Positions 8,509 through 41,409 of a stretch of 64,000 nucleotides of DNA are shown here, piece by piece. Source of the DNA: Squalus acanthias (lineage: Eukaryota). How positions within the stretch are numbered: the stretch's first letter is position 1; each line of letters opens with the position of its first letter. The position numbers and the translations under genes were made by a program. The notes beneath the pieces are model-generated. The model saw nothing but the letters and a program-made list of their open reading frames with translations, made no database searches and was not told the DNA's origin. Location of the stretch: the NCBI GenBank assembly GCA_030390025.1, contig CM059431.1:147500001-147564000 (forward strand), given 5' to 3'.

Positions 8509-11500
8509 TCAAAGGCACTTCCCAGCACGCTCCTCATAACCCTTCACTCCCTTATCTTGCAAAAATCTGTCTATCTCCATTTTAAATGTATTTAATGACC
8601 CAGCCTCCACGGCTCTCTGCGGCGGAGAATTCCACAAATTTACGACCCTCTGAGAGAAGAAGTTCCTCCTCATCTCAGTTCTAAAAGGGCGACCCTTTAT
8701 TCTGAGACTGTGCCCCCGAGTTCTAGATTTCCCCATTAGGGGAAACATCCTCTCTGCATCTACCCTGTTGAGCCCCCTCAGTATCTTATATGTTTCGATA
8801 AGATCACCTCTCATTCTTCTAAATTCCAATGAGTATAGGCCCAGCCTGCTCAACCTTTCCTCATCAGTCAAACCCCTCATCTCTGGAATTAACCGAGTGA
8901 ATCGTCTCTGAACTGCCTCCAATGCAAGTATATCCTTCCTTAAATCAGGAGACCAAAACTGTACGCAGTACTCAAGGTGTGGTCTCACCAATACCCTGTA
9001 CAGTTGTAGCAGGACTTCCCTGCTTTTATACTCCAACCCCCTTGATTTAAATGCCAACATTCCATTTGCCTTTTTGATTACTTGCTGTACCTGCATGCTA
9101 ACTTTTTGTGTTTCATGCACAAGGACCCCCAGATCCCTCTGAAATGTAGCATTTTGTAATCTCTCTCCATTTAAATAATAGTTTGCTTTTTTATTTTCCT
9201 TGCCAAAGTGGATAACCTTGCACTTTCCCACATTATACTCCATCTGCCAAATGTTTGCCCACTCACCTAGGCTGTCTTTATCCCTTTGCAGATTCTTTGA
9301 GTCCTCTGCACAACTTGCTTTCCCACCCATCTTTGTATCATCTGCAAACTTGGCAACATTACACTCCATCCCTTCATCCAAATCATTAATATAGATTGTA
9401 AACAGTTGAGGCCCCAGCACCGATCCTTGTGGCACCCCACTAGTTACCGTTTGCCAACCAGAAAATGACCCATTTATCCCAACTCTCTGCTTTCTGTTAG
9501 TTAGCCAATTCTCTATCCATGCTAATATATTACCTCCAACTCCATCAGCTCTTATCTTGTGCAGTAACCTTTTATGTGGCACCTTATCGAATGCCTTCTG
9601 GAAATCCAAATATACCACATCCACTGGCTCACCCTTGTCCACCCTGCTTGTTACATGCTCAAAGAACTCCAGCAAATTTGTTAAACATGATTTCCCTTTC
9701 CTAAAACCATGCTGACTCTGTTTGACTGCAGTATGTTTTTCTAAATGCCCTGCTACTGCTTCCTTAATGAAGGACTCCAGCATTTTCCCAACGACAGATG
9801 TTAGGCTAACTGGTCTATAGTTTCTTGCTTTCTGTCTCCCTCCTTTCTTAAATAGGGGTGTTACATTGGCGGTTTTCCAATCCGCTGGGACATCTCCAGA
9901 GTCCAGGGAATTTTGGTATATTGCAACTAAAGCATCCACTATCTCTGCAGCCACTTATTTTATGTCCCTGGGATGTAGGCCATCTGGTCCAGGGGACTTG
10001 TCGTCTTTTAGTCCCATTATTTTACCGAGTACTAATTCCTTAGTGATAGTGATTGTCTTTAGTTCCCCACTCCCTGTGGCCCCTTGATTATCCATTATTG
10101 GGATGTTGTTAGTGTCTTCTACCGTGAAGACAGATGCAAAATATTTGTTCAGAGTCTCTGCCATTTCCCCGTTCCCCATTATTAATTCCCCAGTCTCATC
10201 CTCTAAGGGAACCAACATTTACTTTAGCTACTCTCTTCCTTTTTATATACCTGTAGAAGCTTTTACTATCTGTTTTAATGTTTCATGCCAGCTTACTCAC
10301 ATAATTCATCTTCTCTCTCTTTATTTTTTTTTAGTCATCCTTTGCTGGTTTTTAAAAATTTCTCAAACCTTTGGGGGTAAAAATTCAGTTGGATGCGCCT
10401 CCCGTTAGCGCCTTAAGAGGGCGCTAATGGGGCGCAAAGCCGCTAGCGCCCGGGCGCAGCGATGTTTGCGCCGCTCGGGAACTTAACTAGAGATTGTGCG
10501 GCGGCGCTAAACTTTACCGCTGCGAACACCTGCGCGCGCAGATTGTGACGTCATTCCATGGTGCAACGCCGTTGTGGCGCCCCGGAGCGGAAATTGAGTG
10601 GCGCCCCCTGCCTTACCACCTGGCGCATCCAACGACCAGAAGACTGGAACACTATCAATCGCTGTGGGGCTGGGGGGGGGCGCTGTTTAAAGGGGGCCTC
10701 TTCCTGTCTTTTATTGTTGGTGGCATTTTTGAACGACGCATTCTGAGAGAGAGAGGGAGAGACTTCTGGAGAGATTCAACGTTGTGTGAAGGAGTTTTTG
10801 GGTACTGAGCAGCACTTTGCAGGTTCATTTTGATTTGCCATTCCTTGTATCGATTTAGCAGAGACTGTGGGAGCTGCACTCTGAGCTCTTTGCCTGGTAT
10901 TCTCCATTGTTCTTTCCAGCACATTTGATGTGCAAGTCTCTCCAGGCCGAGATTCAAGGCTGCAATGAACAGGATGTGGATGGAAAGCAAGATTAACCAT
11001 CCCCTTTAAGAACTGGCCCGTGCCATTGTGTGTGTGTTCCATTGCTGACTGACATTACATGAGCTTCGCCAGCGCTCTGAGTTAGCGCCTCACTGCTCGG
11101 CCTTTGCGCCTTAAGACAGGTGTGCAGCGCCTGATTTAGCGCTCCACTCACCTCTCGGGGCGGTAAAAGTGAAGTTTCCAGTCAGTGCCGATAATTAGCG
11201 CCAGGCGCTATTATTTGCGTCCAGACGATATTTGCGCCCCAAATGGGGCGCGACCTAATTTTTCCCCCTTGGTCTCCCACCAATCTTGGCAACATTGTAT
11301 GCCTTCGTTTTCAATTTGATACCATCCTTTACTTCCTTAGTTAGCCACGGATGGTGCTCCCTTCTCTTAAAACCTTTCTTTCTCACTGGAATATATTTTT
11401 GTTGAGAGTTATGAAATATCTCCTTAAATGTCCGCCACTGCATTTCAACTTTCTTACCCTTTAATTTGTTTTTCCAGTCCACTTTAGCCAGTTCTGCCCT

Positions 11501-12301
11501 CATGCCATTATAATTGCCTTTATTTAAGATCAGGACACTGGTTTGGGATACAACTTTCTCAACCTCCAGCTGAATTTGAAATTCAACCGTGCTGTGATCA
11601 CTCTTTCCTAGAGGATCCTTTACTATGAGATCATTTATTAATTTTGTCTCATTACATGGTACTAGATCCAAGATAGCCTGCTCCCTGGTTCGTTCCATGA
11701 CATACTGTTCTAGGAAAACATCCCGGATGCACTCTATGAACTCCTCCTCCAGGCTACCATGGCCAATTTGATTTGTCCAATCAATATGGAGATTAAAATC
11801 ACCAATGATTATTACCGTACCTTTTTTACAGGCCTCCATTATTTGTTGATTTATACTCTGTCCAACAGTATTGCTACTGTTCGGGGGCCTGTAGACTACG
11901 CCCACCAGAGACTTTTTCCCCTTATTATTTTTCATCTCCACCCAAACCAATTCTACATCTTGATCTTCTTAGCCAATATTACTTCTCACCAAAGCAATGA
12001 TCCCATCTTTTACCAACAAAGCCACCCCACCTCCCTTTCCTTTCTTTCTATCCTTCCGAGTTATCATATACCCTGGAATATTCAGTTCCCAGCCCTGGTT
12101 GCCTTGCAACCACGGCTCTGTAATGGCGATCAGATCATACCCATTTCTATCTATTTGTGCCGTCATCTCATTTATCTTGTTACGAATGCTGCGTGCATTA
12201 GGATATAGAGCTTTTAACTTTGTCTTTTTACCATTTTTCCTTGTTTTGGCCTTTTTTTCTGTTACACTCTTATTTTTAAACATTCTGTCCCTTCCTGTCA
12301 C
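8509..12301 (-). pseudogene. CR1 ORF2 (APE endonuclease + reverse transcriptase), disrupted
   Basis: NARSI, IAITEPW, GGGV, YRPP, GDFN, SDH (APE); NYRPVSL, QHGF, LDFQKAFD, GVPQGSVLGP, FADD (RT). In-frame stops at 11969 and 9955, frameshift near 10.2 kb, MITE insertion. Confidence 0.92.
10374..11268. mobile_element. Non-autonomous PIF/Harbinger-type DNA transposon (MITE), about 895 bp
   Basis: TIRs GGGGTAAAAATT / AATTTTTCCCCC, 3-bp TSD TTG (10371-10373, 11269-11271), GC-rich subterminal GCGCC repeats, splits CR1 ORF2. Confidence 0.75.
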
Positions 12302-14489: not shown

Positions 14490-15945
14490 TCTAATCTAAT
14501 TGAATTTTTTGATGAAGTAACAGGGAGGTTTGATGAAGGGAATGCAATGGATGTTGTCTACATGGATTTTCCGAAGGCGTTTGACAAAGTACGACATGGC
14601 AACACGGTGGCATAGTGGTTAGCACTGTTGCCTCACAGCGCCAGGGACCCGGGTTTGAATCCGGCCTCCGGGTGACTGTCTGTGTGGAGTTTGCACATTC
14701 TCCCCGTGTCTGCTTGGGTTTCCTCCGGGTGCTCCGGTTTCCTCCCACAGTCCAAAGATGTGCGGGTTAGGTTGATTTGGCTATGATAAATTGACCCTTA
14801 GTGTTAGGGGGATTAAATACGTGGGGTTACGGGGATAGGGTGGGATATGTGTCGGTGCAGGCTCGATGGGCCAAAATGGCCTCTATCTGCACTGTGGGGA
14901 TTCTGTGAGAAGGTTGGTTAACACAATTGAGGCTCATGGAATAGGTGGATCAGTGGCAGCTTGGATAAGGAATTGGCTTAAGGACAGAAAACAGCGAGTT
15001 GTGGTAAATGGCTGTTTTTCAGGCAGGATGGTAGACAGTGGTGTTCCCCAAGGGTCAGTGTTGGGGCCACTGCTTTTTTTGATATATATAAATGAGCTGG
15101 ATATTGGAATATCAAGTAGAATTTCTAAATTTGCCGATGACACCAAACTTGGGGGTGTGGCAAACAGTGAGGATGATACCAATCGACTGCAACAGGACAT
15201 AGAAAGGCTGTCAGAGTGGGCAGACAAGTGGCAGATGGAGTTTAATATAGAGAAGTGTGAGGTGATGCATTTTGGCAGAAGGAACAGGGAGAGGCAATAT
15301 ACACTTAATGGCACAGTTTTAAAGAGTGTGCAGGGACAGAGGGACCTGGGAGTTAATGTGCATAGGTCCCTGAAGGTGGCAGGATATATTGAGAGAATAG
15401 TTAACAAAGCTGATGGGATCTTGGGTTTCATCAATAGAGGTATTGAGTACAAAAGTAGAGAAGTTATGCTGAACCTGTATAAAGCGCTGGTTAGGCCACA
15501 ACTGGAGTATTGTGTCCAGTTCTGGTCACCACACTTTAGGAAGGATGTGAAGGCCCTTGAGAGGGTGCAGAGGAGATTTACCACAATGGTTCTGGGGATG
15601 GGGGATCTTAGCTACAAGGACAGGTTGGAGAAGCTGGATTTGTTTTCATTGGAGTAAAGGAGGTTGAGGGGTGATTTGATAGAGGTGTACAAGATTTTGA
15701 TGGGTTTGGATAGGCTAGATGTAGAAAGGCTGTTCCCACTAGTTGATGGTACAAGGACTAGGGGACACAGATTTAAGGTTTTGGGCAAGAGATACAGGGG
15801 GGATGTGAGGAAAAACTTTTTTATGCAGCGAGTGGTGAGGACCTGGAGTTCGCTGCCGACGGAAGTGGTGGAAGCAGAGATGTTTTCAAGGGGAGACTGG
15901 ATAGGCACTTGAGGGAAATAAACTTGCAGGGATAGAGCGGGGGAA
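14490..15945 (+). mobile_element. 5'-truncated CR1 LINE (RT C-terminal half)
   Basis: ORFs 14866-15657 and 15664-15912 with GVPQGSVLGP, FADD, RPQLEYCVQFWSP, RGDLIEVYKI. Confidence 0.9.
14598..14908 (+). mobile_element. HE1/V-SINE-like SINE inserted in CR1
   Basis: tRNA-like head GGTGGCATAGTGG...GGTTTGAATCC, V-domain TGTGGAGTTTGCACATTCTCCCCGTGTCTGC..GGGTTTCCTCCGGGTGCTCCGGTTTCCTCCCACA, CR1-like tail GGGCCAAATGGCCT. Confidence 0.85.
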
Positions 15946-16135
15946 TGGGGTTAGAGGGGTGAGGGGTGAGGGGGTGAGGGGGTGAGGGGTTAGGTGGGGG
16001 TGAGAGATTAGAGGGTGTGAGGGGTTAGAGGGGGTGAGGGGTGAGGAGTTAGAGGGTTAGAGGGGTGAGGGGTGAGGGGTTAGGTGGGGGTGAGGGGTTA
16101 GAGGGGGTGAGGGGTTAGAGGTGAGGGGTGAGGAG
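15946..16135 (+). repeat. G-rich degenerate telomere-like simple repeat (GGGGTTAGA/GGGGTGA)
   Basis: Direct reading; abuts the stop codon of ART copy 1. Confidence 0.85.
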
Positions 16136-16996
16136 TTAGGTGGGGCTGAGGGGTGCGAGGGTTTGGGGTTGGTCAGGTGGGATTCTGGAGGATTTATTGC
16201 GGCAGTACCAGGTGAGACTCCCACCTCCCCCCAGAATGACTAAGATCCCCAAAGCGGTCGGAAACCAGACCCACCAGGGGGTTATGGAATAAACGATCAG
16301 ACTACCCGACCCGTCCGACCCGAGCCCCACCATCACTCCCTCGTAGCCTGTCGATTCGAGGGTGTATCTGTTCCCTCCTGACAAGGGGATGATGCCTTTG
16401 ATTATGAACTTCTCGTAAGGTGGGATCAAGACCTCCTCTTGCGACGGTCTGAACGAGAACTTTCGGAGGTCGACACCGTACGATGTGCTTATCACAAATA
16501 AAGGCTTTATCCCAAACTTCTCAGCCAGCACCTCATTGAAGGAAGTGGAGGTAAATATTCCAAACCTCATCTCTGTGCCCGGCTTCCCAGGGACCAAACT
16601 CCCAGAGATATTATTCCATGTCCCCCGATACATCAGTCGCCCAATGGAACTGTTTCTCAACTCGTCCAGGGCGACAGATAGAAGGTAGTGAAAGCTCTTC
16701 AGTTTAAAGCAGGCATTGTATTTGTTGAGGTCACCGCCATAGCTTCGAACCCCATCGTTCAAGCTACTGTACAAATCTCCACCAAAGGTGTAGGCGGTCA
16801 TGGCAATGAAATGCTCCTCTCGGAGACCACGAAGCTCTTTGTCTGTGTTGCCTTCCCAACTGTTGGAGGCCTCTTTCCAGATACTCTTAAACACCGGGTC
16901 CCTCCCCAGCTCTTTCTCCAGGGATTTTATCACCAAGTCATCGGACGCCTCGCTCCGCGAGAAGTAATAGGCGGCAGAATTTTCTTCCATGTTCAT
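16136..16996 (-). CDS. Ecto-ADP-ribosyltransferase (ARTC)-like catalytic exon, copy 1, with C-terminal transmembrane helix
   Basis: Open 286-aa frame with ARTC motifs AMTAYT, FKLKSFHYLLSVAL, YRGT (R), RFGIFTSTS (S), SQEEVLIPPYEKF (QxE); hydrophobic WWVWFPTALGILVILGGGGSLTWYC then RNKSSR tail. Confidence 0.88.
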   Translation of the reverse strand: MNMEENSAAYYFSRSEASDDLVIKSLEKELGRDPVFKSIWKEASNSWEGNTDKELRGLREEHFIAMTAYTFGGDLYSSLNDGVRSYGGDLNKYNACFKLKSFHYLLSVALDELRNSSIGRLMYRGTWNNISGSLVPGKPGTEMRFGIFTSTSFNEVLAEKFGIKPLFVISTSYGVDLRKFSFRPSQEEVLIPPYEKFIIKGIIPLSGGNRYTLESTGYEGVMVGLGSDGSGSLIVYSITPWWVWFPTALGILVILGGGGSLTWYCRNKSSRIPPDQPQTLAPLSPT

Positions 16997-17054
16997 CTCT
17001 GCTTGGAGTTAGAATCTGACAATCTGTACCCTCGGGAGTCACTGGTATACTTAC

Positions 17055-17065
17055 CAGACTTCTAC
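17055..17065 (-). other. Candidate 11-nt micro-exon upstream of ART copy 1 (identical copy at 19095-19105)
   Basis: Minus strand TTTCTGTCTTTCTGATTGGCAG|GTAGAAGTCTG|GTAAGT: good acceptor and consensus donor, but the following intron would be only 53-58 nt. Confidence 0.35.
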
Positions 17066-17107
17066 CTGCCAATCAGAAAGACAGAAATCCAACTTATACA
17101 GCGACTT

Positions 17108-17452
17108 TCACTCCCTCAGTACTGCCCCTCCGACAGTGCAGCGCTCCCTCAGTACTGACCCTCCGACAGTGCAGCGCTCCCTCAGTACTGCCCCTCCGAC
17201 AGTGCAGCAGTCACTCAGTACTGCCCCTCCGACAGTGCAGCGCTCCCTCAGTACTGACCCTCCGACAGTGCAGCGCTCCCTCAGTACTGTCCCCCGACAG
17301 TGCAGAGCTCCCTCAGTACTGCCCCTCCGACAGTGCAGCAATCCCTCAGTACTGTCCCCCGACCGTGCAGTGCTCCCTCAGTACTGCCCCTCCGACAGTG
17401 CAGAGGTCCCTCAGTACTGCCCCTCCGACAGTGCAGCGCCCCCTCAGTACTG
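17108..17452 (-). repeat. 33-bp SINE-derived minisatellite
   Basis: Reverse complement of the 2400-3780 unit. Confidence 0.92.
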
Positions 17453-17475
17453 GGCAACAGGGGATTGTCAGCCTG

Positions 17476-18175
17476 GGTTAGAGGGGATGAGGGGTTAGAG
17501 GGGATGAGCGGTTAGAGGGGATGAGGGGTTAGAGAGGATGAGAGGTTAGAGGGGATGAGGGGTTAGAGGGGGTGAGGGGGTAGAGGGGGTGAGGGGTGAG
17601 GGGCTGGAGGGTTAGAAGGGGTGAAGGCTGAGGGGTTAGAGGGGGTGAGGGGTGAGGCGTTAGAGGGTGAAGGGCTGAGGGGTGAGGGGTTAGGTGGGGG
17701 TGAGAGATTAGAGGGTGTGAGGGTTAGAGGGTGTGAGGGGTTAGAGGGGGTGAGGAATGAGGAGTTAGAGGGTTAGAGGGGTGAGGGGTGAGGGGTTAGA
17801 GGGTGAGGGGTTAGAGTGTGAGGGGTTAGGTAGGGGTGAGTGGTGAGGGGTTAGAGGGTGAGCGGTGAGGGATTAGGTGGGGTTGAGGGTTTAGAGGGGG
17901 TGAGGGGTTAGAGGGGGTGAGGGGTGAGGAGTTAGATGGTTCGGGGGTGAGGGGTTAGGTGGGGGTGAGGAATTAGAGGGGCTGAGGGGTTAGAGGGGTG
18001 AGGGGTGAGGGGGGTGAGGGGGTGAGGGGTTAGGTGGGGGTGAGAGATTAGAGGGTGTGAGGGGTTAGAGGGGGTGAGGGATGAGGAGTTAGAGGGTTAG
18101 AGGGGTGAGGGGTGAGGGGTTAGGTGGGGGTGAGGGGTTAGAGGGGGTGAGGAGTTAGAGGTGAGGGGTGAGGAG
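17476..18175 (+). repeat. G-rich degenerate telomere-like simple repeat
   Basis: GGGGTTAGA/GGGGTGA mixture abutting the stop codon of ART copy 2. Confidence 0.85.
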
Positions 18176-19036
18176 TTAGGTGGGGCTGAGGGGTGCGAGG
18201 GTTTGGGGTTGGTCAGGTGGGATTCTGGAGGATTTATTGCGGCAGTACCAGGTGAGACTCCCACCTCCCCCCAGAATGACCAAGATCCCCAAAGCGGTCG
18301 GAAACCAGACCCACCAAGGGGTTATGGAATAAACGATCAGACTACCCGACCCGTCCGACCCGAGCCCCACCATCACTCCCTCGTAGCCTGTCGATTCGAG
18401 GGTGTATCTGTTCCCTCCTGACAAGGGGATGATGCCTTTGATTATGAACTTCTCGGAAGGTGGGATCAAGACCTCCTCTTGCGATGGTCTGAACGAGAAC
18501 TTTCGGAGGTCGACACCGTACGATGTGCTTATCACAAATAAAGGCTTTATCCCAAACTTCTCAGCCAGCACCTCATTGAAGGAAGTGGAGGCAAATATTC
18601 CAAACCTCAATTCTGTGCCCGGCTTCCCAGGGACCAAACTCCCAGAGATATTATTCCATGTCCCCCGATACATCAGTCGCCCAATGGAACTGTTTCTCAA
18701 CTCGTCCAGGGCGACAGATAGAAGGTAGTGAAAGCTCTTCAGTTTAAAGCAGGCATTGTATTTGTTGAGGTCACCGCCATAGCTTCGAACCCCACCGTTC
18801 AAGCCACTGTACAAATCTCCACCAAAGGTGTAGGCGGTCATGGCGATGAAATGCTCCTCTCGGAGACCACGAAGCTCTTTGTCTGTGTTGCCTTCCCAAC
18901 TGTTGGAGGCCTCTTTCCAGATACTCTTAAACACCGGGTCCCTCCCCAGCTCTTTCTCCAGGGATTTTATCACCAAGTCATCGGACGCCTCGCTCCGCGA
19001 GAAGTAATAGGCGGCAGAATTTTCTTCCATGTTCAT
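18176..19036 (-). CDS. Ecto-ADP-ribosyltransferase (ARTC)-like catalytic exon, copy 2
   Basis: 286-aa ORF, 5 aa differences from copy 1; YRGT, FASTS, SQEEVLIPPSE; same TM and tail. Confidence 0.88.
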   Translation of the reverse strand: MNMEENSAAYYFSRSEASDDLVIKSLEKELGRDPVFKSIWKEASNSWEGNTDKELRGLREEHFIAMTAYTFGGDLYSGLNGGVRSYGGDLNKYNACFKLKSFHYLLSVALDELRNSSIGRLMYRGTWNNISGSLVPGKPGTELRFGIFASTSFNEVLAEKFGIKPLFVISTSYGVDLRKFSFRPSQEEVLIPPSEKFIIKGIIPLSGGNRYTLESTGYEGVMVGLGSDGSGSLIVYSITPWWVWFPTALGILVILGGGGSLTWYCRNKSSRIPPDQPQTLAPLSPT

Positions 19037-19147
19037 CTCTGCTTGGAGTTAGAATCTGACAATCTGTACCCTCGGGAGTCACTGGTATACTTACCAGACT
19101 TCTACCTGCCAATCAGAAAGACAGAAATCCAACTTATACAGCGACTT

Positions 19148-19908
19148 TCACTCCCTCAGTACTGCCCTACCGACAGTGCAGCGCTCCCTCAGTACTGACC
19201 CTCCGACAGTGCAGCGCTCCCTCAGTACTGCCCCTCCGACAGTGCAGCAGTCACTCAGTACTGCCCCTCCGACAGTGCAGCGCTCCCTCAGTACTGACCC
19301 TCCGACAGTGCAGCGCTCCCTCAGTACTGACCCTCCGACAGTGCAGCGCTCCCTCAGTACTGCCCCTCCGACAGTGTAGCACTCACTCAGTACTGCCCCT
19401 CCGACAGTGCAGCGCTCCCTCAGTACTGACCCTCCGACAGTGCAGCGCTCCCTCAGTACTGACCCTCCGACAGTGCAGCGCTCCCTCAGTACTGCCCCTC
19501 CGACAGTGCAGCGCTCCCTCAGTACTGACCCTCCGACAGTGCAGCGCTCCCTCAGTACTGCCCCTCCGACAGTGCAGCGCTCCCTCAGTACTGCCCCTCC
19601 GACAGTGCAGCACTCCCTCAGTACTGCCCCTCCGACAGTGCAGCGCTCCCTCAGTACTGCCCCTCCGACAGTGCAGCGCTCCCTCAGTACTGCCCCTCCG
19701 ACAGTGCAGCACTCTCTCAGTACTGCCCCTCCGACAGTGCTGCGCTCCCTCAGTACTGCCCCTCTGACAGTGCGGTGCTCCCTCAGCACTGCCCCTCCGA
19801 CAGTGCGGCACTCCCTCAGTACTGCCCCTCCGACAGTGCGGCGCTCCCTCAGTACTGCCCCTCCGACAGTGCGGCGCTCCCTCAGTACTGTCCCTCCGAC
19901 AGTGCAGT
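19148..19908 (-). repeat. 33-bp SINE-derived minisatellite
   Basis: Tandem unit as above. Confidence 0.92.
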
Positions 19909-20019
19909 GTAGCAGGAGAGGACAAAAGGTTTGTGGAATTGAAGTCAGCGTTGTGGTTTTGTGCTCTGTCTCAGCATTCACTGCACTTTAAACATCTTCT
20001 CACTGTCAACATGCAAACG

Positions 20020-21184: not shown

Positions 21185-21925
21185 TTAGGGTTGGTGACCT
21201 ATAGCTTGGTCAAAGAGGGAGGCTTTAAGGAGAATCTTAAAGGAGGAGAGAGAGGCGGAGAGGTTTAGGGTGGGAATTCCAGAGCTTAGTGGCCCAGGCA
21301 GCTGAAGGCACGGCCGCCAATAGTGGAGCGATGGAAATCGGGGGATGCACAAGAGGCCAGAATTGGGGGAGCGCAGAGACCTTAGAGGGATGTAGGGCTG
21401 GAGGAGGTTACAGAGATAGGGAGGGTTGTAGGGGCTGGAGGAGTTTACAGAGATAGGGAGGGTTGTAGGGGCTGGAGGAGGTTACAGAGATAGGGAGGGT
21501 TGTAGGGCTGGAGGAGGTTACAGAGATAGGGAGGGTTGTAGGGCTGGTGGAGGTTACAGAGATAGGAAGGGTTGTAGGGGCTGGAGGAGTTTACAGAGAT
21601 AGGGAGGGTTGTAGGGGCTGGAGGAGGTTACAGAGATAGGGAGGGTTGTAGTGCTGGAGGAGGTTACAGAGATAGGGAGGGTTGTAGGGGCTGGAGGAGG
21701 TTACAGAGATAGGGAGGGTTGTAGGGCTGGAGGAGGTTACAGAGATAGGGAGGGATGTAGGGCTGGAGGAGGTTATAGAGATAGGGAGGCTTGTAGGGCT
21801 GGAGGAGGTTACAGAGATAGGGAGGGTTGTAGGGCTGGAGGAGGTTACAGAGATAGGGAGGGTTATAGGGGCTGGAGAAAGTTACAGCGATAGGGATTGT
21901 TGTAGGGCTGGAGGAGGTTACAGCG
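21185..21925 (-). mobile_element. L2 LINE 3' fragment running into the 36-bp minisatellite (duplicate at about 26548-27250)
   Basis: Minus strand reads PPYLCNLLQPY..LRSPNSGLLCIP..GGRAFSCLG..WNS, typical of the L2 ORF2 end. Confidence 0.75.
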
Positions 21926-21929
21926 CCCC

Positions 21930-23432
21930 ATCAGTGCTGCCCCTCCGACAGTGCAGCACTCCCTCAGTACTGCCCCTCCGACAGTGCGGCGCTCACTCAG
22001 TACTGTCCCTCCGACAGTGCAGCGCTCCCTCAGTACTGCCCCTCCGACAGTGCGGCGCTCACTCAGTACTGTCCCTCCGACAGTGCAGCGCTCCCTCAGT
22101 ACTGCCCCTCCGACAGTGCAGCACTCCCTCAGTACTGCCCCTCCGACAGTGCAGGACTCCCTCTGTACTGCCCCTCCGACAGTGCGGCGCTCACTCAGTA
22201 CTGTCCCTCCGACCGTGCGGCGCTCCTTCAGTACTGCCCCTCCGACAGTGCAGCGCTCACTCAGTTCTGCCCCTCCGACAGTGCTGCGCTCCCTCAGTAC
22301 TGCGCTCCCTCAATACTGCCCCTCTGACAGTGCAGCGCTCCCTCAGTACTGCCCCCACCGACAGTGCAGCGCTCCCTCAGTACTGCCCCTCTGACAGTGC
22401 AGCGCTCCCTCAGTACTGCCCCTCCGACAGTGCAGCGCTCCCTCAGTACTGCCCCTCCGACCGTGCAGCGCCCCCTCAGTACTGCCCCTCCGACAGTGCA
22501 GCGCTCCCTCAGTACTGCCCCTCCGACAGTGCAGCGCTCCCTCAGTACTGCATGTCCGACAGTGCAGCACTCCCTCAGTACTGCCCCTCCGACAGTGCAA
22601 CGCTCCCTCAGTACTGCCTTAACGATGGTGCAGCACTCCCTCAGTACTGTCCCTTTGACAGTGCAGCGCTCCCTCATTACTGCCCCACCGACAGTGCAGC
22701 GCTCCCTCAGTACTGGCCCTCTGACAGTGTGGCGCTCCCTCAGTACTGCTCCTCTGACAGTGCAGCGCTCCCTCAGTACTGCTCCTCCGACAGTGCAGCG
22801 GTCCCTCAGTACTGCCTCTCCAACAGTGCAGCGCTCCCTCAGTACTGCCCCTCCGACAGTGTAGCGCTCCCTCAGTACTGCCCCTCCGACAGTGCAGCGC
22901 TCCCTCAGTACTGCCCCTCCGACAGTGCAGCACTCCCTCAGTGCTGCCCCTCCAACAGTGCAGCGCTCCCTCAGTACTGCCCCTCCGACAGTGCAGCGCT
23001 CCCTCAGTACTGCCCCTCCGACAGTGCAGCGCTCCCTCAGTACTGCACCTCCGACAGTGCAGCGCTCCCTCAGTACTGCCCCTCTGACAGTGCAGTGCTC
23101 CCTCAGTACTGCCCATCTGACAGTGCAGCACTCCCTCAGTACTGTCCCCCGACAGTGCAGAGCTCCCTCAGTGCTGCCCCTCCGACAGTGCAGCACTCCC
23201 TCAGTACTGTCCCCCGACCGTGCAGTGCTCCCTCAGTACTGCCCCTCCGACAGTGCAGAGGTCCCTCAGTACTGCCCCTCCGACAGTGCAGCGCCCCCTC
23301 AGTACTGGGCAACAGGGGATTGTCAGCCTGGGTTTATGGGGCTCGAGTCCCTGGAGTGGAGAATCTGGAACCCACGACCGTCTGACTCAGAGGCGAGAGA
23401 GACTGAGACCCACTGAGCCACGACTGACAGGT
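21930..23432 (-). repeat. 33-bp minisatellite with SINE head at about 23310-23432 (duplicate at 27258-28758)
   Basis: Array followed by reverse-strand head with GTGGCTCAGTGGG and GGTTCCAG. Confidence 0.9.
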
Positions 23433-23517
23433 AGGAAAGAATGTCATTGATGAGGAAGATATGTAGCAGGAGAGGACAAAGGGTTTGGGGAATTGGAGTC
23501 AGCGTTGTGGTACTCGC

Positions 23518-23554
23518 AGGACGTCAGGAACAGAATGTGAAACAGCCTCTCCAT
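23518..23554 (-). CDS. Putative leader (signal-peptide) exon copy A, MERLFHILFLTS, GC donor
   Basis: AAGATGG Kozak context, hydrophobic 12 codons + 1 nt, donor GCGAGT (GTGAGT in copies C and D). Confidence 0.45.
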
Positions 23555-23659
23555 CTTTACTTCAACACAAGGATTCCGGCAATAAAACAACTTTTCCTCA
23601 CAATCAGCTACACTCTGCAAGAAAATAGTCGCTCAACTGAATTACTATAATCCACGGGA

Positions 23660-23834
23660 GGAAGTGAAACCACCTGCCACTATTTTAATCTTTTCAATCT
23701 CGAGTCTCACACATCAGATTGGTCTGTGGGCAATGAATAATGCTCTAAAACATCATCCTGTCCACTTTAAACATCTGTTCACTATCAACATGCAAACATA
23801 CTGAACCTTGTTTAAACAGTGGGAGGAAGTGAAA
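23660..23834. promoter_or_regulatory. Two Ets-IRF composite (EICE-like) motifs GGAAGTGAAA upstream of leader exon A (copies at 28987-28996 and 29152-29161)
   Basis: GGAAGTGAAAC at 23660 and 23825. Confidence 0.5.
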
Positions 23835-26800
23835 CTTTGTTGGTTTCTGGTTTGTGGCGAGTTGGCAGTGGGCAGATGGGTCACACATTTCCCTTCATTG
23901 AAAGACTTTTGCATTTCTACAGCGGCTTTCACCTCCTCCGGCACGTCCCAAAGCGCTTCACAGCCAATGAAGTGCTTTGTTTTTGAAATGTTGTAGTGTG
24001 GGAAACGCGGAAGCCATTTGCGCACAGCAAGATCCCAGCGTGATAATGACCAGATCATCTGTTGTAGTGATGTTGTTGGAGGGATTAATATTGGCCCCAG
24101 GACACCGGGGATAACTCTCCCCAGTTCTTCTTCGCAATAGTAAAAAAAGAAAGACTTGCATTTCTATAGCGCCTTTCACGACCACTGGACGTCCCAACGC
24201 ACTTTACAGACAATGAAGTGATTTTTTTTTGGAGTGTAGTCACTGTTGTAATGTAGGAAACTCGGCAGCCAATTTGCGCACAGCAAGCTCCCACAAACAG
24301 CAACATGATAATGATCAGGTCATCTCATTTTTAGTGATGTTGGTTGAGGGATAAATATTGCCCGCAGGATACCGGGGAGAAGTCCCTGCTGCCCTTATTC
24401 GAAATAGTGCCCATGGGATCTTTGACACCTGAGAGAGCAGACGGTTTAACGTCTCATCCGAAAGACAGCACCTCCGGCAAGCCCCTTCACAATCTTATAT
24501 GTTTCAATAAGATCGCCTCTCCTTCTTCTGAACTCCAATGAGTAGAGTCCCAATCTACTCAACCTCTCCTCATATGTCCACCCCCTCATCCCCGGGATTA
24601 ACCGAGTGAACCTTCTTTGTACTGCCTCGAGAGCAAGTATGTCTTTTCTTAAGTTTGGACACCAAAACTGTATGCAGTATTCCAGGTGCGGTCTCACCGA
24701 TACCTTATATAACTGCAGCAATACCTCCCTGTTTTTATAATCTATCCTCCTAGCAATAAAAGCCAACAATCCGTTGGCCTTCTCAGTACTGACCCTCCGA
24801 CAGTGCAGCGCTCCCTCAGTACTGACCCTCCGACAGTGCAGCGCTCCCTCAGTACTGCCCCTCCGACAGTGCAGCGCTCCCTCAGTACTGACCCTCCGAC
24901 AGTGCAGCGCTCCCTCAGTACTGCCCCTCCGACAGTGCAGCGCTCCCTCAGTACTGCCCCTCCGACAGTGCAGCACTCCCTCAGTACTGCCCCTCCGACA
25001 GTGCAGCGCTCCCTCAGTACTGCCCCTCCGACAGTGCAGCGCTCCCTCAGTACTGCCCCTCCGACAGTGCAGCACTCTCTCAGTACTGCCCCTCCGACAG
25101 TGCTGCGCTCCCTCAGTACTGCCCCTCCGACAGTGCGGTGCTCCCTCAGCACTGCCCCTCCGACAGTGCGGCACTCCCTCAGTACTGCCCCTCCGACAGT
25201 GCGGCGCTCCCTCAGTACTGCCCCTCCGACAGTGCGGCGCTCCCTCAGTACTGTCCCTCCGACAGTGCAGTGTAGCAGGAGAGGACAAAAGGTTTGTGGA
25301 AATGAAGTCAGCGTTGTGGTTTTGTGCTCTGTCTCAGCATTCACTGCACTTTAAACATCTTCTCACTGTCAACATGCAAACGTACTGAACCTTATTTAGA
25401 CCGCACTTGGAATACTGTGCACCGTTCTGGTCTCCAGACCGCACTTGGAGCACTGAGCACAGTTCTGGTCTCCATATCACACTAGGAGAACTGTGCACAG
25501 TTCTGGTCTCCATATCACATTTGGAGCACTGTGCACAGTTCTGGTCTCCATATCACACTAGGAGAACTGTGCACAGTTCTGGTCTCCATATCACACTTGG
25601 AATACTGTGCACAGTTCTGGTCTCCATATCACACTTGGAGCACTGTGCACAGTTCTGGTCTCCCTATCACACTTGGAGCACTGTGCACAGTTCTGGTCTC
25701 CATATCACACTTGGAGCACTGTGTACAGTTCTGGTCTCCATACCACACTTAGATCTTGGCTCAGCATGCCTCCAGCCCAGTTTGGGAGGGGAGCTTGCTG
25801 TGAGCAGATTGGGTCACACATTTCCATTCATTGAAAGACTTTTCCATTTCTACAGCGCCTTTCACCTCCCCCGGCACGTCCCAAAGCGCTTCACAGCCAA
25901 TGAAGTGCTTTGTTTTTGAAGTGTTGTAATGCAGGAAATGCGGAAGCCATTTGCACACAGCAAGATCCCAGTGTGATAATGACCAGATCATCTGTTTTAG
26001 TGATGTTGTTGGAGGGATTAATATTGGCCCCAGGACACCGGGGATAACTCTCCCCAGCTCTTCTTCGCAATCGTAAAACAAGAAAGACTTGCATTTCTAG
26101 AGCGCCTTTCACGACCACCGGACGTCCCAACGCACTTTACAGCCAATGAAGGGCTTGTTTTTTGTAGTGTAGTCACTGTTGTAGTGTCGGAAACACGGCA
26201 ACCAATTTGCGCACAGCAAGCTCCCACAAACTGCAACATGATAATGATCAGGGCATCTCATTTTTAGTGATGTTGGTTGAGGGATAAATATTGCCCGCAG
26301 GATACCGGGGAGAAGTCCCTGCTGCCCTTATTCGAAATAGTGCCCATGGGATCTTTAACACCTGAGAGAGCAGACGGTTTAACATCACATCTGAAAGACA
26401 GCCCCTCCGGCAGTGCAGCACTCCCTCAGCACTGCACTGGAGTGTCAGCCTAGATTTCTGAGCTAAAGTCTCTGGAGTGGGACTTGAACCCACAACCTTC
26501 TGACTCAGAGGTGAGAGTGCTGCCCACGGAGCCTCCGCTGACACATATTAGGGTTGGTGACCTATAGCTTGGTCAAAGAGGGAGGCTTTAAGGAGAATCT
26601 TAAAGGAGGAGAGAGAGGCGGAGAGGTTTAGGGTGGGAATTCCAGAGCTTAGTGGCCCAGGCAGCTGAAGGCACGGCCGCCAATAGTGGAGCGATGGAAA
26701 TCGGGGGATGCACAAGAGGCCAGAATTGGGGGAGCGCAGAGACCTTAGAGGGATGTAGGGCTGGAGGAGGTTACAGAGATAGGGAGGGTTGTAGGGGCTG

Positions 26801-28844
26801 GAGGAGTTTACAGAGATAGGGAGGGTTGTAGGGGCTGGAGGAGGTTACAGAGATAGGGAGGGTTGTAGGGCTGGAGGAGGTTACAGAGATAGGGAGGGTT
26901 GTAGGGCTGGTGGAGGTTACAGAGATAGGAAGGGTTGTAGGGGCTGGAGGAGTTTACAGAGATAGGGAGGGTTGTAGGGGCTGGAGGAGGTTACAGAGAT
27001 AGGGAGGGTTGTAGTGCTGGAGGAGGTTACAGAGATAGGGAGGGTTGTAGGGGCTGGAGGAGGTTACAGAGATAGGGAGGGTTGTAGGGCTGGAGGAGGT
27101 TACAGAGATAGGGAGGGATGTAGGGCTGGAGGAGGTTTTAGAGATAGGGAGGGTTGTAGGGCTGGAGGAGGTTACAGAGATAGGGAGGGTTGTAGGGCTG
27201 GAGGAGGTTACAGAGATAGGGAGGGTTATAGGGGCTGGAGGAGGTTACAGCGCCCCATCAGTGCTGCCCCTCCGACAGTGCAGCACTCCCTCAGTACTGC
27301 CCCTCCGACAGTGCGGCGCTCACTCAGTACTGTCCCTCCGACAGTGCAGCGCTCCCTCAGTACTGCCCCTCCGACAGTGCGGCGCTCACTCAGTACTGTC
27401 CCTCCGACAGTGCAGCGCTCCCTCAGTACTGCCCCTCCGACAGTGCAGCACTCCCTCAGTACTGCCCCTCCGACAGTGCAGCACTCCCTCTGTACTGCCC
27501 CTCCGACAGTGCGGCGCTCACTCAGTACTGTCCCTCCGACCGTGCGGCGCTCCTTCAGTACTGCCCCTCCGACAGTGCAGCGCTCACTCAGTTCTGCCCC
27601 TCCGACAGTGCTGCGCTCCCTCAGTACTGCGCTCCCTCAATACTGCCCCTCTGACAGTGCAGCGCTCCCTCAGTACTGCCCCCACCGACAGTGCAGCGCT
27701 CCCTCAGTACTGCCCCTCTGACAGTGCAGCGCTCCCTCAGTACTGCCCCTCCGACAGTGCAGCGCTCCCTCAGTACTGCCCCTCCGACCGTGCAGCGCCC
27801 CCTCAGTACTGCCCCTCCGACAGTGCAGCGCTCCCTCAGTACTGCCCCTCCGAAAGTGCAGCGCTCCCTCAGTACTGCATGTCCGACAGTGCAGCACTCC
27901 CTCAGTACTGCCCCTCCGACAGTGCAACGCTCCCTCAGTACTGCCTTAACGATGGTGCAGCACTCCCTCAGTACTGTCCCTTTGACAGTGCAGCGCTCCC
28001 TCATTACTGCCCCACCGACAGTGCAGCGCTCCCTCAGTACTGGCCCTCTGACAGTGTAGCGCTCCCTCAGTACTGCTCCTCTGACAGTGCAGCGCTCCCT
28101 CAGTACTGCTCCTCCGACAGTGCAGCGGTCCCTCAGTACTGCCTCTCCAACAGTGCAGCGCTCCCTCAGTACTGCCCCTCCGACAGTGTAGCGCTCCCTC
28201 AGTACTGCCCCTCCGACAGTGCAGCGCTCCCTCAGTACTGCCCCTCCGACAGTGCAGCACTCCCTCAGTGCTGCCCCTCCAACAGTGCAGCGCTCCCTCA
28301 GTACTGCCCCTCCGACAGTGCAGCGCTCCCTCAGTACTGCCCCTCCGACAGTGCAGCGCTCCCTCAGTACTGCACCTCCGACAGTGCAGCGCTCCCTCAG
28401 TACTGCCCCTCTGACAGTGCAGTGCTCCCTCAGTACTGCCCATCTGACAGTGCAGCACTCCCTCAGTACTGTCCCCCGACAGTGCAGAGCTCCCTCAGTA
28501 CTGCCCCTCCGACAGTGCAGCACTCCCTCAGTACTGTCCCCCGACCGTGCAGTGCTCCCTCAGTACTGCCCCTCCGACAGTGCAGAGGTCCCTCAGTACT
28601 GCCCCTCCGACAGTGCAGCGCCCCCTCAGTACTGGGCAACAGGGGATTGTCAGCCTGGGTTTATGGGGCTCGAGTCCCTGGAGTGGAGAATCTGGAACCC
28701 ACGACCGTCTGACTCAGAGGCGAGAGAGACTGAGACCCACTGAGCCACGACTGACAGGTAGGAAAGAAAGTCATTGATGAGGAAGATATGTAGCAGGAGA
28801 GGACAAAGGGTTTGGGGAATTGGAGTCAGCGTTGTGGTACTCGC

Positions 28845-28881
28845 AGGACGTCAGGAACAGAATGTGAAACAGCCTCTCCAT
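28845..28881 (-). CDS. Putative leader exon copy B, MERLFHILFLTS, GC donor
   Basis: Identical to copy A within the 5.3-kb duplication. Confidence 0.45.
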
Positions 28882-29805
28882 CTTTACTTCAACACAAGGA
28901 TTCCGGCAATAAAACAACTTTTCCTCACAATCAGCTACACTCTGCAAGAAAATAGTCGCTCAACTGAATTACTATAATCCACGGGAGGAAGTGAAACCAC
29001 CTGCCACTATTTTAATCTTTTCAATCTCGAGTCTCACACATCAGATTGGTCTGTGGGCAATGAATAATGCTCTAAAACATCATCCTGTCCACTTTAAACA
29101 TCTGTTCACTATCAACATGCAAACATACTGAACCTTGTTTAAACAGTGGGAGGAAGTGAAACTTTGTTGGTTTCTGGTTTGTGGCGAGTTGGCAGTGGGC
29201 AGATGGGTCACACATTTCCCTTCATTGAAAGACTTTTGCATTTCTACAGCGGCTTTCACCTCCTCCGGCACGTCCCAAAGCGCTTCACAGCCAATGAAGT
29301 GCTTTGTTTTTGAAATGTTGTAGTGTGGGAAACGCGGAAGCCATTTGCGCACAGCAAGATCCCAGCGTGATAATGACCAGATCATCTGTTGTAGTGATGT
29401 TGTTGGAGGGATTAATATTGGCCCCAGGACACCGGGGATAACTCTCCCCAGTTCTTCTTCGCAATAGTAAAAAAAGAAAGACTTGCATTTCTATAGCGCC
29501 TTTCACGACCACTGGACGTCCCAACGCACTTTACAGACAATGAAGTGATTTTTTTTTGGAGTGTAGTCACTGTTGTAATGTAGGAAACTCGGCAGCCAAT
29601 TTGCGCACAGCAAGCTCCCACAAACAGCAACATGATAATGATCAGGTCATCTCATTTTTAGTGATGTTGGTTGAGGGATAAATATTGCCCGCAGGATACC
29701 GGGGAGAAGTCCCTGCTGCCCTTATTCGAAATAGTGCCCATGGGATCTTTGACACCTGAGAGAGCAGACGGTTTAACGTCTCATCCGAAAGACAGCACCT
29801 CCGGC

Positions 29806-32235
29806 AAGCCCCTTCACAATCTTATATGTTTCAATAAGATCGCCTCTCCTTCTTCTGAACTCCAATGAGTAGAGTCCCAATCTACTCAACCTCTCCTCAT
29901 ATGTCCACCCCCTCATCCCCGGGATTAACCGAGTGAACCTTCTTTGTACTGCCTCGAGAGCAAGTATGTCTTTTCTTAAGTTTGGACACCAAAACTGTAT
30001 GCAGTATTCCAGGTGCGGTCTCACCGATACCTTATATAACTGCAGCAATACCTCCCTGTTTTTATAATCTATCCTCCTAGCAATAAAAGCCAACAATCCG
30101 TTGGCCTTCTTGATCACCTGCTGCACCTGGATACTAACTTTTTGATTTTCTTGCACTAGGACCCCCAGATCCCTTTGTACTGCAGTACTTTCCAGTTTCT
30201 CGCCATTAAGATAATAACTTGCTCTCTGATTTTTCCTGCCAAAGTGCATCACCTCACATTTTCCAATATTGTATTGCATCTGCCAAATGTCCGCCCACTC
30301 ACCCAGCCTGTCTATATCCCCTTGTAGGTTTTTTATGTCCTCCTCACTTTCTACTTTCCCTCCCATCTTTGTTTCATCTGCAAACTTTGATATGTTACAC
30401 TCGGTCCCCTCCTCCAAATCGTCAATATAGATTGTAAAGAGTTGGGGACCCAGCACTGACCCCTGCGGAACACCACTGGCTACTGGTTGCCAGTCCGAGA
30501 ATGAACCATTTATCCCAACTCTCTGCTTCCTGTTAGATAACCAATTCTCCACCCATGCCAGAATATTACCCCCAATCCAGTGATTTTTTATCTTGAGCAA
30601 TAATCTTTTATGTGGCACCTTGTCGAATGCCTTCTAGAAGTCTAAATACACTACGTCCACTGGTTCCCCTTTATCCACCCTGTACGTTATGTCCTCAAAG
30701 AACTCAATCAAATTTGTCAGACATGACTTCCCCTTCATAAAGCCATGCTGACTTTGTCCTATTAAATTATGTATATCTAAATGTTCCGTTACTGTCTCCT
30801 TAATAATAGACTCCAAAATTTTACCCACCACAGATGTTAGGCTAACTGGTCTATAATTTCCAGCCTTCTGCCTACTACCCTTTTTAAATAAGGGTGTTAC
30901 ATTCACAGTTTTCCAATCTGCCGGGACCTTTGCTGAGTCCAGGGAATTTTGGAAAATGATTACCAAAGCATCCACAATCCCAACTGCCACTTCCCTCAAG
31001 ACCCTAGGATGTAAGTCATCAGGTCCAGGGGATTTATCCGCCTTGAGTCCCATTATTTTACTGAGTACCAATTCCTCAGTGATTTTAATCGTATTTAGTT
31101 CCTCCCCCCCTAGAGCCCCCTGTTTGTCCAGTGTTGGGATGTTCTTAGTGTCCTCTACCGTAAAGACTGAAACAAAATATTTGTTCAGCATTTTTGCCAT
31201 CTCCATGTTTCCCACCATTAATTTCCCGGTCTCATCCTCTAAGGGACCTATGTTTGCCTTAGCCACCCTTTTTCTTTTTATATAACTATAGAAACTCTTG
31301 CTATCTGTTTTTATATTTTTTGCTAATTTATTTTCATAATCTATCTTCCCTTTCTTAATCAATCCTTTAGTTACTTTTAGCTGTCTTTTGAAGACTTCCC
31401 AATCTTCTATCCTCCCACTAAGTTTGGCTACCTTATATGTCCTTGTTTTTAGTCGGATACTATCCTTAATTTCTTTACTTAGCCACGGATGGCTGTCATT
31501 TCTTTTACACCCTTTTTTCTTCAGTGGAATATATATCTTTTGAAAGTTGTAAAATAACTCCTTGAATGAACACCACTGCTCATGTACCGTCTTACCCTTT
31601 AATCTATTTTCCCAGTCCACTTTAATCAATTCCGCTCTCATACCATCATAGTCTCCTTTATTCAAGCTCAGTACGCTTGTTTGAGAACCAACCTTCTCAC
31701 CCTCTAATTGGATAGGGAACTCAACCATGTTATGGTCACTCATTCCAAGGGGATCCTTAACTAGGACATTATTAATTAATCCTGACTCATTACACAGGAC
31801 CAGGTCCAAGGTTGCTTGCCCCCTTGTAGGATCAGTTACATACTGCTCAAGAAATCCATCCCGAATACACTCAATAAACTCTTCCTCAAGGCTGCCCTGC
31901 CCAATTTGATTTGTCCAGTTATTATGTTAGTTAAAATCCCCCATAATTATAGCTGTTCCCTTATTACATGCCCCAACTATTTCCTTATTAATACTTCTTC
32001 CAGCAGAGTTGCAAATATTAGGAGGCCTATATACTACTCCCACTAGTGTTTTTTTCCCCTTATTATTCCTTATCTCCACCCAAACTGTTTCATTATCCTG
32101 ATCCTTTGACCCAATATCATTTCTCTGTATTACAGTGATTCCTTCCTTTATTAACATAGCCACCCCACATCCCCTTCTTTCCTGCCTGTCCTTCCTGATT
32201 GTTAAATAACCTGGCCTATTTAATTCCCAATCGTT
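29806..32235 (-). mobile_element. CR1 ORF2 fragment (APE C-terminal part + RT), truncated at both ends; partial copy at 24479-24781
   Basis: ORFs 31927-32163, 30634-31809, 29773-30618 with YRPP, GDFN, SDH, NYRPVSL, QHGF, GVPQGSVLGP, FADE. Confidence 0.92.
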
Positions 32236-33873: not shown

Positions 33874-33910
33874 AGAACGTCAGGAACAGAATGTGAAACA
33901 GCCACTCCAT
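33874..33910 (-). CDS. Putative leader exon copy C, MEWLFHILFLTF, GT donor
   Basis: ATGGAGTGGCTGTTTCACATTCTGTTCCTGACGTTCT|GTGAGT; IRF-like AAAGTGAAA at 34017-34025. Confidence 0.55.
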
Positions 33911-39772: not shown

Positions 39773-39774
39773 GT

Positions 39775-40772: not shown

Positions 40773-41372
40773 ACTTTTGAAGTGTATTCACCTGAGGGGA
40801 CAGTCGGGGCCTCGGTTTAATGTATCATCCAACAGTGCAGCACTCCCTCAGTACTGCCCCTCCGACAGTGCAGCGCTCCCTCAGTACTGCCCCATCCGAC
40901 AGTGCAGCACTCCCTCAGTACTGCCCCTCAGACAGTGCAGCTCTCCCTCAGTACTGCCCCTCCGACAGTGCAGTGCACCCTCAGTGCTGCCCCTCCGACA
41001 GTGCAGGGCTCCCTCAGTACTGCCCCTCCGACAGTGCGGCGCTCCCTCAGTACTGTCCCTCCGACAGTGTAGCACTCCCTCAGTACTGCCCCTCCGACAG
41101 TGCGGCACTCCCTCAGTACTGACCCTCCGACAGTGCAGCACTCCCTCAGTCCTGGACAACCAGGGAGTGTCAGCCTGGGATTATGGAGCTCGAGTCTCTG
41201 GAGTGGAGAATCTGGAACCCACGACCGTCTGACTCAGAGGCGAGAGAGAGAGAGAGACTGAGACCCACTGAGCCACGACTGACAGGTAGGAAAGAAAGTC
41301 ATTGATCAGGAAGATATGTAGCAGGAGAGGACAAAGGGTTTGGGGAATTGAAGTCAGCGTTGTGGTACTCAC

Positions 41373-41409
41373 AGGACGTCAGGAACAGAATGTGAAACAG
41401 CCACTCCAT
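41373..41409 (-). CDS. Putative leader exon copy D, MEWLFHILFLTS, GT donor
   Basis: ATGGAGTGGCTGTTTCACATTCTGTTCCTGACGTCCT|GTGAGT. Confidence 0.55.

Follow-up and report, generated by a model that had tools for sequence, protein, structure and literature searches.

What do the two ADP-ribosyltransferase (ART)-like reading frames in a stretch of the Squalus acanthias genome represent, and what would their active site do? The stretch, referred to here as the window, comprises 64,000 nucleotides of contig CM059431.1 (positions 147,500,001 to 147,564,000 of assembly GCA_030390025.1). A first-pass annotation, made from its letters, had described both frames as atypical ARTC-family transferases with an R-S-QxE active site and had suggested that they might act as immune effectors. 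We found that the two frames are tandem copies of the principal coding exon of an ART2-like ARTC gene from a cartilaginous fish, with an R-S-QxE site, and that they are likely pseudogenes, a reading to which we give a probability of roughly 0.65, because a shared 2-bp deletion parts the enzyme frame from its splice acceptor and the nearest signal-peptide exon has been deleted.

Two copies of one catalytic exon

Both copies lie on the minus strand as stop-to-stop frames of 290 codons each (16136-17008 for copy 1 and 18176-19048 for copy 2), and 285 of the 290 residues are identical between them. When the window was searched by tblastn with the ART frame, only copy 1 and copy 2 were matched. They belong to a tandem duplication of 2,040 bp, in which 15947-17452 and 17986-19494 are 98.0% identical over 1,509 bp. 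The motifs MYRG, F(T/A)STS, and PSQEEVLIPP are present in both copies, and the earlier description of YRG, STS, EVLIPP, and SQEE in the two frames was correct in every detail. The interval given in that description ended at 19036, where copy 2 has its first ATG. Both copies are exon frames rather than whole genes, and they are out of phase with the conserved start of the exon (coordinates in Table 1).

Family, active site, and fold

The assignment to the ARTC family was confirmed by a hidden Markov model search, in which both copies scored far above the gathering cutoff of 22.3 bits for Pfam PF01129 (ART): copy 1 had an E value of 2.5e-39 (135.3 bits), and copy 2 had an E value of 4.9e-37 (127.8 bits). 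In a phmmer search against solved structures, only chains of rat ART2.2 were matched, the best being 1gxy (E value, 2.4e-17). The alignment placed FSFRPSQEEVLIPPYE of the window protein opposite FSFRPDQEEVLIPGYE of rat ART2.2, with QEE on QEE. The chain of the E189A mutant (1og4) deviated exactly at the residue facing E192 of the query, and Q190 and E192 therefore correspond to Q187 and E189 of rat ART2.2. R128, S154, and E192 line up with the ART2.2 triad and were invariant in the alignment of the window protein with its relatives.

An AlphaFold model, for which a 17-row alignment served as input, had a mean predicted local distance difference test score of 80.1 and a predicted template modeling score of 0.77. 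The top three Foldseek matches of this model were the ART2.2 entries 1og4, 1gxy, and 1og3, with E values of ~1e-14, template modeling (TM) scores of 0.76-0.78 on the target, and root mean square deviations of 3.1-3.4; ExoS, XopAI, Vis, HopU1, and C3 followed. The structure prediction that the first-pass annotation had called for thus returned ART2.2 as the best fold match, and its R-S-QxE reading stands, with the Gln at the rat ART2.2 position in both the phmmer alignment and the fold match. The ART fold of the domain is complete, and R128, S154, Q190, and E192 are all in place. The Glu two residues before the catalytic Glu (position -2), which is the hallmark of arginine-specific enzymes, is absent, Q190 being found in both copies; the feature of the rat ART2 type, a Gln at -2 in an otherwise intact R-S-E site, is present.

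Four conserved cysteines of ARTC proteins form two disulfides. At these four columns, the residues of the window protein are S, G, S, and V. At its C terminus, the AlphaFold model has a hydrophobic helix (residues 245-260) followed by a polar tail, and no feature of a glycosylphosphatidylinositol (GPI) anchor or of secretion was found. From sequence and model, the window subfamily is predicted to be anchored in the membrane by a transmembrane helix with a short tail and not by a GPI signal.

Gene plan of the family

The 5' flanks of the paralogues were aligned in 21 rows, including the window copies (L001 and L002) and omitting L010, whose match starts at residue 61. The acceptor TTCTGTCTTTCTGATTGGCAG|GT, located approximately 60 nt upstream of the ART frame, is common to 21 of 21 rows, with L020 carrying a C for the second G. 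The approximately 22 codons that follow it (RSLVSLPVN..G.DC......LNMEENSA) match the mature N termini of annotated shark proteins. A separate signal exon of 37 nt, made up of an ATG start with 12 codons (MEWLFHILFLTS) plus one base (phase 1) and followed by GTGAGT, lies 755-2574 bp upstream of L005, L006, L007, L008, and L011, and its peptide resembles the N termini of annotated Heterodontus and Mustelus proteins. The signal exons of the window were recovered by a similarity search and not by a filter based on the exon pattern. The large exon carries the codons for about 22 N-terminal residues (one Cys among them), the ART domain, a stalk of beta-hairpins, the transmembrane helix, and a short tail. 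Joined together, the signal exon and large exon of L007 give a continuous 302-residue frame in which R-S-QEE stands between a signal peptide and a transmembrane stretch with a short tail.

When 22 loci were read from the acceptor, 7 (L003-L008 and L011) were open through R, S, QxE, and the transmembrane stretch, L013 and L015 were open through the motifs only, L019 was interrupted by the end of its contig, and 12, both window copies included, stopped before the catalytic motifs. We also considered each window frame as a gene starting from its own ATG (M5) and lacking a signal peptide. This reading was rejected, since the acceptor and the 22 codons after it are kept in all 21 aligned paralogues and annotated relatives have signal peptides.

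Two of the paralogous ART exons, L005 (G000:C1296:332035-332862) and L006 (G000:C1296:756195-757022), lie 424 kb apart, with no differences in the aligned coding part and with the final 2.8 kb of the upstream flank 100% identical. Either a segmental duplication took place recently or the assembly contains the same locus twice. Both frames continue for 560-610 codons via a duplicated transmembrane segment into satellite. The ancestral TGA after ...NKSS has been lost in several paralogues, and Pro-rich tails are then read from sequence of the G-rich array type.

A shared 2-bp deletion and the case for pseudogenes

The two bases missing from the window copies are present in 18 of the 19 other rows of the flank alignment; L020 has a different, 5-bp gap, and the 2-bp gap occurs in L001 and L002 only. 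The deleted junction, which reads …CTCCAAG|CAGAGATG… in the copies, was found twice in the whole 3.7-Gb assembly (3,882 contigs), both times in the window copies, and we thus infer a single deletion event, older than the 2-kb tandem duplication, in a gene cluster that is rich in minisatellites and evolves by birth and death. An N-terminal signal peptide in frame with the catalytic exon was not found in the window copies; paralogues, such as L007, have one. Between copy 1 and copy 2 there are satellites only, with no unique sequence, and therefore no signal exon lies between them. Upstream of copy 2, the nearest signal-exon region is a remnant from which the exon itself is missing (Table 1), and the same exon-less remnant occurs upstream of L003 and L004. 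Given the shared deletion, the loss of the proximal signal exon, and the repeat surroundings, the window copies are unlikely to be effectors, as had been suggested, and no evidence for an immune-effector role was found in this analysis.

Several observations weigh against pseudogene status. Both ART frames are fully open, and every catalytic residue is kept. Copy 1 and copy 2 differ by five synonymous and five nonsynonymous changes (synonymous divergence [dS], 0.026), and the ratio of nonsynonymous to synonymous divergence (dN/dS) of 0.29 between them leans toward constraint, although it comes from 10 changes only. By our own arithmetic, approximately 0.4 stops would be expected under neutrality at a dS of 0.026, and thus the openness of the frames proves little. 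In addition, the AG at 17003-17002 (ccaAG|CA), if joined to a signal exon of phase 1 whose last base is T, would create an in-frame Ser junction (T + CA), and two intact-looking signal exons are found upstream on the same strand. Finally, sequencing run X1, one of four small runs from one study (of presumed kind and not recorded as RNA), reached a depth of 6.2 at position 16999, where it did not show the 2-bp insertion, and a contig of this run may therefore carry the deleted allele.

The open frames, the fitting phase, the upstream signal exons, and the dN/dS between the copies would also agree with the copies being working genes. In that case, splicing would join one of the distal signal exons (33910-33874 or 41409-41373) to the downstream AG at 17003-17002 (19043-19042 in copy 2), the first 22 codons of the exon would be skipped, the frame would be restored, and the product would be an R-S-QxE membrane ecto-enzyme of the kind that was first proposed. 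We consider this unlikely. The conserved acceptor, 64 nt farther upstream, remains flawless, and its context is better than that of the downstream AG (12 of 16 pyrimidines versus 10 of 16, and C versus A at -3). A neighboring AG (gcAG|AG) would give T + AG, a stop, and the sole N-terminal Cys, a residue conserved in the subfamily, lies in the segment that would be skipped. Nor was a spliced form seen, although a proper search for one was not possible.

We regard it as very improbable that the 2-bp deletion is an artifact of assembly or polishing and that both exons are in truth intact, as L003 and L004 are. A tandem duplication amid satellites is difficult to assemble, and the X2 and X3 contigs across the site carry the two extra bases. 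However, these contigs are only 95-96% like the window. Run contigs span 16157-17060 and 18679-19035 at this level of likeness, and their variants match L002 at 2 of 30 positions, L003 at 11 of 30, and L004 at 9 of 30, from which it follows that they stem from other copies or from another individual and are uninformative on the window copies. Moreover, the two copies share the deletion although 10 other positions differ between them, there is no homopolymer at the site, and the proximal signal exon would still be absent after repair. The window copies are new, probably defective, members of the ART family.

Distribution and lability of the Q-x-E site

A six-frame search of the assembly yielded 45 ART matches. 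QEE or QQE was found at 20 of the 22 close loci in the genome and EEE at the other 2 (L019 was read by eye), while the 10 distant ART loci comprised 8 with E-x-E and 2 with Q-x-E. An exhaustive search for relatives returned 439 at an E value of ≤ 0.001. Among 167 ART-family proteins gathered, 117 had R-S-ExE, 29 had R-S-QxE, and 4 had R-S-HxE. Of ten Q-x-E representatives looked up, nine belonged to Scyliorhinus, Leucoraja, Pristis, Chiloscyllium, Sardina, Bombina, Anolis, and two Alligator species. Q-x-E proteins thus occur in sharks, skates and rays, a teleost, a toad, a lizard, and alligators.

A tree of 185 rows was built with FastTree, with the Q/E column omitted. The Q/E state changed at least 26 times on this tree, and 20 of these changes were forced by starred branches. 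With R-S-QxE in 29 of 167 proteins and so many changes on the tree, the label "atypical" that had been attached to the two frames was too strong. The 18-row clade of the window protein (99% support) included 13 rows with Q, 3 with E, 1 with H, and one unscorable row, and the 10-row clade uniting the window protein with Heptranchias included 9 rows with Q and 1 with E. On the basis of these clade counts and the changes on the tree, Q is probably the old state of the subfamily, and position -2 is labile across the ART family.

The same tree splits with 99% support into clades of 48 and 137 rows. The 48-row clade holds the 18 rows of this genome, with the window protein among them, and the 21 members whose names were seen are all from cartilaginous fishes, Callorhinchus included. 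None of the four canonical cysteines is present in 46 of these 48 rows; in the 137-row clade, that of bony vertebrates, most rows keep three or four of them. All sampled cartilaginous-fish ARTCs, including those of the chimaera Callorhinchus, fall in one clade with 99% support.

Predicted activity, selection, and meaning

According to the available portion of PMC3102197, a Glu at -2 confers arginine specificity, and QXE occurs in rat ART2, which hydrolyzes NAD and does not modify protein, in C3 (acceptor, Asn), in pierisin (DNA guanine), and in pertussis toxin (Cys). The same portion describes mutagenesis of ART2 and C3 that creates or destroys arginine transfer, and the background on E-x-E and Q-x-E given in the first-pass annotation is stated there likewise. 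Intact members of the family are predicted to be ecto-enzymes of type I membrane topology, binding and cleaving NAD+. They would not be expected to transfer ADP-ribose to arginine, given the Gln instead of Glu two residues before the catalytic Glu, and, by analogy with rat ART2, they are predicted to act mainly as membrane-bound NAD glycohydrolases or on another acceptor.

That the subfamily members are ordinary arginine-specific transferases despite Q-x-E is highly improbable: R, S, and the catalytic E are conserved and automatic annotation names such proteins "NAD(P)(+)--arginine ADP-ribosyltransferase-like," but the names are transferred by similarity, and in every pair compared in the available portion of PMC3102197 only the EXE member modifies arginine, with mutagenesis in agreement. 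For about one-sixth of the family, the automatic name "arginine ADP-ribosyltransferase" is probably incorrect.

Pairwise dN/dS values between diverged paralogues, calculated by the Nei-Gojobori method, were 1.0-1.2 and were no lower in the catalytic segments than elsewhere. Values near 1 are compatible with either diversifying selection or decay. A wider interpretation, which is tentative and as a whole rather doubtful, would join these observations. It posits a disulfide-free cartilaginous-fish branch of ecto-ARTs with a shark-expanded, transmembrane-anchored Q-x-E subfamily that evolves by birth and death with a dN/dS near 1. Its intact members would be surface NADases or non-arginine transferases under diversifying selection in host defense, and the window copies would be either recent casualties or genes rescued by an alternative acceptor.

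The two exons themselves, most likely recent pseudogene copies, matter little. They point to an uncharacterized vertebrate ARTC lineage with no canonical disulfides, with a predicted transmembrane anchor, and mostly with Q-x-E, a site reported to abolish arginine transfer in every tested case. The natural series of Q, E, and H on one scaffold could be used for studies of acceptor specificity and extracellular NAD turnover.

Surroundings of the exons

Four signal-peptide exons in the window stand without an ART exon of their own after them: two are intact-looking, and two carry W>R and a GC donor. A tblastn search of the window found no ART exon between these signal-exon sites and the two copies. 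The two degenerate signal exons sit in a 5.3-kb higher-order repeat, whose units at 21421-24783 and 26748-30110 are 98.9% identical.

Besides the two minisatellite arrays adjoining the ART exons (Table 1), arrays of the same 33-bp unit occur in the window at 2402-3779, 21921-23307, 24782-25270, 27248-28634, 32416-33655, 38095-39773, and 40828-41154. This minisatellite also flanks ART exons on other scaffolds, and its word depth in the four small sequencing runs was 10^4-10^5, versus 5-25 for the ART exon.

Seven of 16 other long open reading frames scanned in the window match Pfam, all of them to transposon domains. A broken pogo/Tigger-type DNA transposon occupies 34845-36824 of the minus strand over three consecutive frames, two of which have Pfam matches (36318-36824, CENP-B_N; 35523-36314, HTH_Tnp_Tc5 and DDE_1). 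Reverse-transcriptase/endonuclease fragments of long interspersed nuclear elements (LINEs) lie at 8512-9954, 11258-11968, 14839-15654, and 29776-31926.

Table 1. Positions of the ART exon copies, their key codons, and the flanking signal-exon sites and arrays in the window
Feature	Position (copy 1 or first site)	Position (copy 2 or second site)	Strand	Remark
ART exon	16136..17065	18176..19105	-	Copy 1, from first base after conserved acceptor (17065) to stop codon (16138-16136); copy 2, same layout
ART-domain open frame, copy 1	17008-16139		-	
Splice-acceptor AG	17066..17067	19106-19107	-	Preceded by TTCTGTCTTTCTGATTGGC
2-bp deletion site	17001..17002	19041-19042	-	ART frame out of phase with canonical exon start from here
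Premature TGA, canonical frame	16938..16940	18978-18980	-	42 codons after acceptor
R128 codon	16627-16625	+2040	-	
S154 codon	16549-16547	+2040	-	
Q190 codon	16441-16439	+2040	-	CAA in both copies
E192 codon	16435-16433	+2040	-	
ARTT codons Q190-E191-E192	16433..16441	18473-18481	-	CAA GAG GAG
Predicted transmembrane helix TPWWVWFPTALGILVILGGGGSLT	16211..16282	18251-18322	-	AlphaFold helix; same hydrophobic stretch in aligned shark proteins
Signal-exon region remnant	19908..20017	25271-25380	-	First site nearest copy 2; exon itself missing
Degenerate signal exon MERLFHILFLTS	23518..23554	28845-28881	-	GC donor for GT; W>R; second site is its twin
Intact-looking signal exon MEWLFHILFLTF	33874..33910		-	GT donor; ~14.8 kb upstream of copy 2
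Intact-looking signal exon MEWLFHILFLTS	41373..41409		-	GT donor; ~22.3 kb upstream of copy 2
33-bp minisatellite	17111..17452	19151-19907		Upstream of copy 1, inside duplicated unit; second array upstream of copy 2
Degenerate G-rich array, GGGTTAG/GGGTGAG type		17475..18202		Directly downstream of copy 2
Shorter G-rich array, GGGTTAG/GGGTGAG type	15948-16161			Downstream of copy 1

Comparison with known systems

The nearest named proteins are predicted shark proteins, from Heptranchias perlo (51% identity), Carcharodon (50%), Heterodontus (46%), and Mustelus (44-46%). Five of the predicted shark relatives, Heptranchias perlo P0001, Heterodontus francisci P0003, P0005, and P0007, and Scyliorhinus canicula P0025, share the 18-row clade with the window protein at 44-52% identity, and all of them have Q-x-E. 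These five, named "ecto-ADP-ribosyltransferase 5-like" or "ART2-like," have no canonical cysteines, like the window protein, and they end in a C-terminal transmembrane stretch with a Cys-rich end. P0001 and P0003 are continuous open reading frames with signal peptides, P0005 has a short signal peptide, and P0007 has none. In P0007 (415 amino acids, "uncharacterized protein"), the ART domain of the subfamily is joined to a reverse transcriptase (PF00078); the likely explanation is a gene prediction that continues from an ART exon into a neighboring LINE, as could happen in the window. Predicted proteins of the subfamily are thus already in public databases under similarity-derived names. A literature search turned up no paper on shark ARTs or on those of other cartilaginous fishes, and no characterization of the five relatives, its matches being nanobody papers.

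Among more distant systems, the C3 exoenzymes, pierisin, and pertussis toxin have the same Q-x-E variant of the R-S-E site, as described in the available portion of PMC3102197. C3 is a distant structural neighbor, and the bacterial and insect Q-x-E ARTs have 15-17% identity to the window protein and TM scores of 0.58-0.62 on the target. Their Q evolved independently, and the acceptors Asn, DNA guanine, and Cys are therefore not transferable by homology. The arginine-specific ARTCs (human ART1 and ART5, mouse ART2, and chicken ART4; R-S-ExE) belong to the same family as the window protein and share R, S, and the catalytic E. In contrast, they have E at -2 where the subfamily has Q, and they are GPI-anchored or secreted.

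Rat ART2.2 (RT6; PDB 1gxy, 1og1, 1og3, and 1og4) has the same Pfam family, fold, and R-S-QEE site as the window protein and a nearly identical local sequence, with 27-28% identity overall. The two differ in that the ART2.2 cysteines (…ngdC-h…, …ikTClgv…) face S/G/S in the window protein, which is predicted to have a transmembrane helix and a short tail where ART2.2 has a GPI signal. The model also places approximately 40 extra residues, as beta-hairpins, between the core and the anchor. Unlike rat ART2.2, the window copies are frameshifted. The gene plan of the window family, with the signal peptide on an exon of its own and a single large catalytic exon, is that of the mammalian and chicken ART genes as set out in the available portion of PMC2576468.

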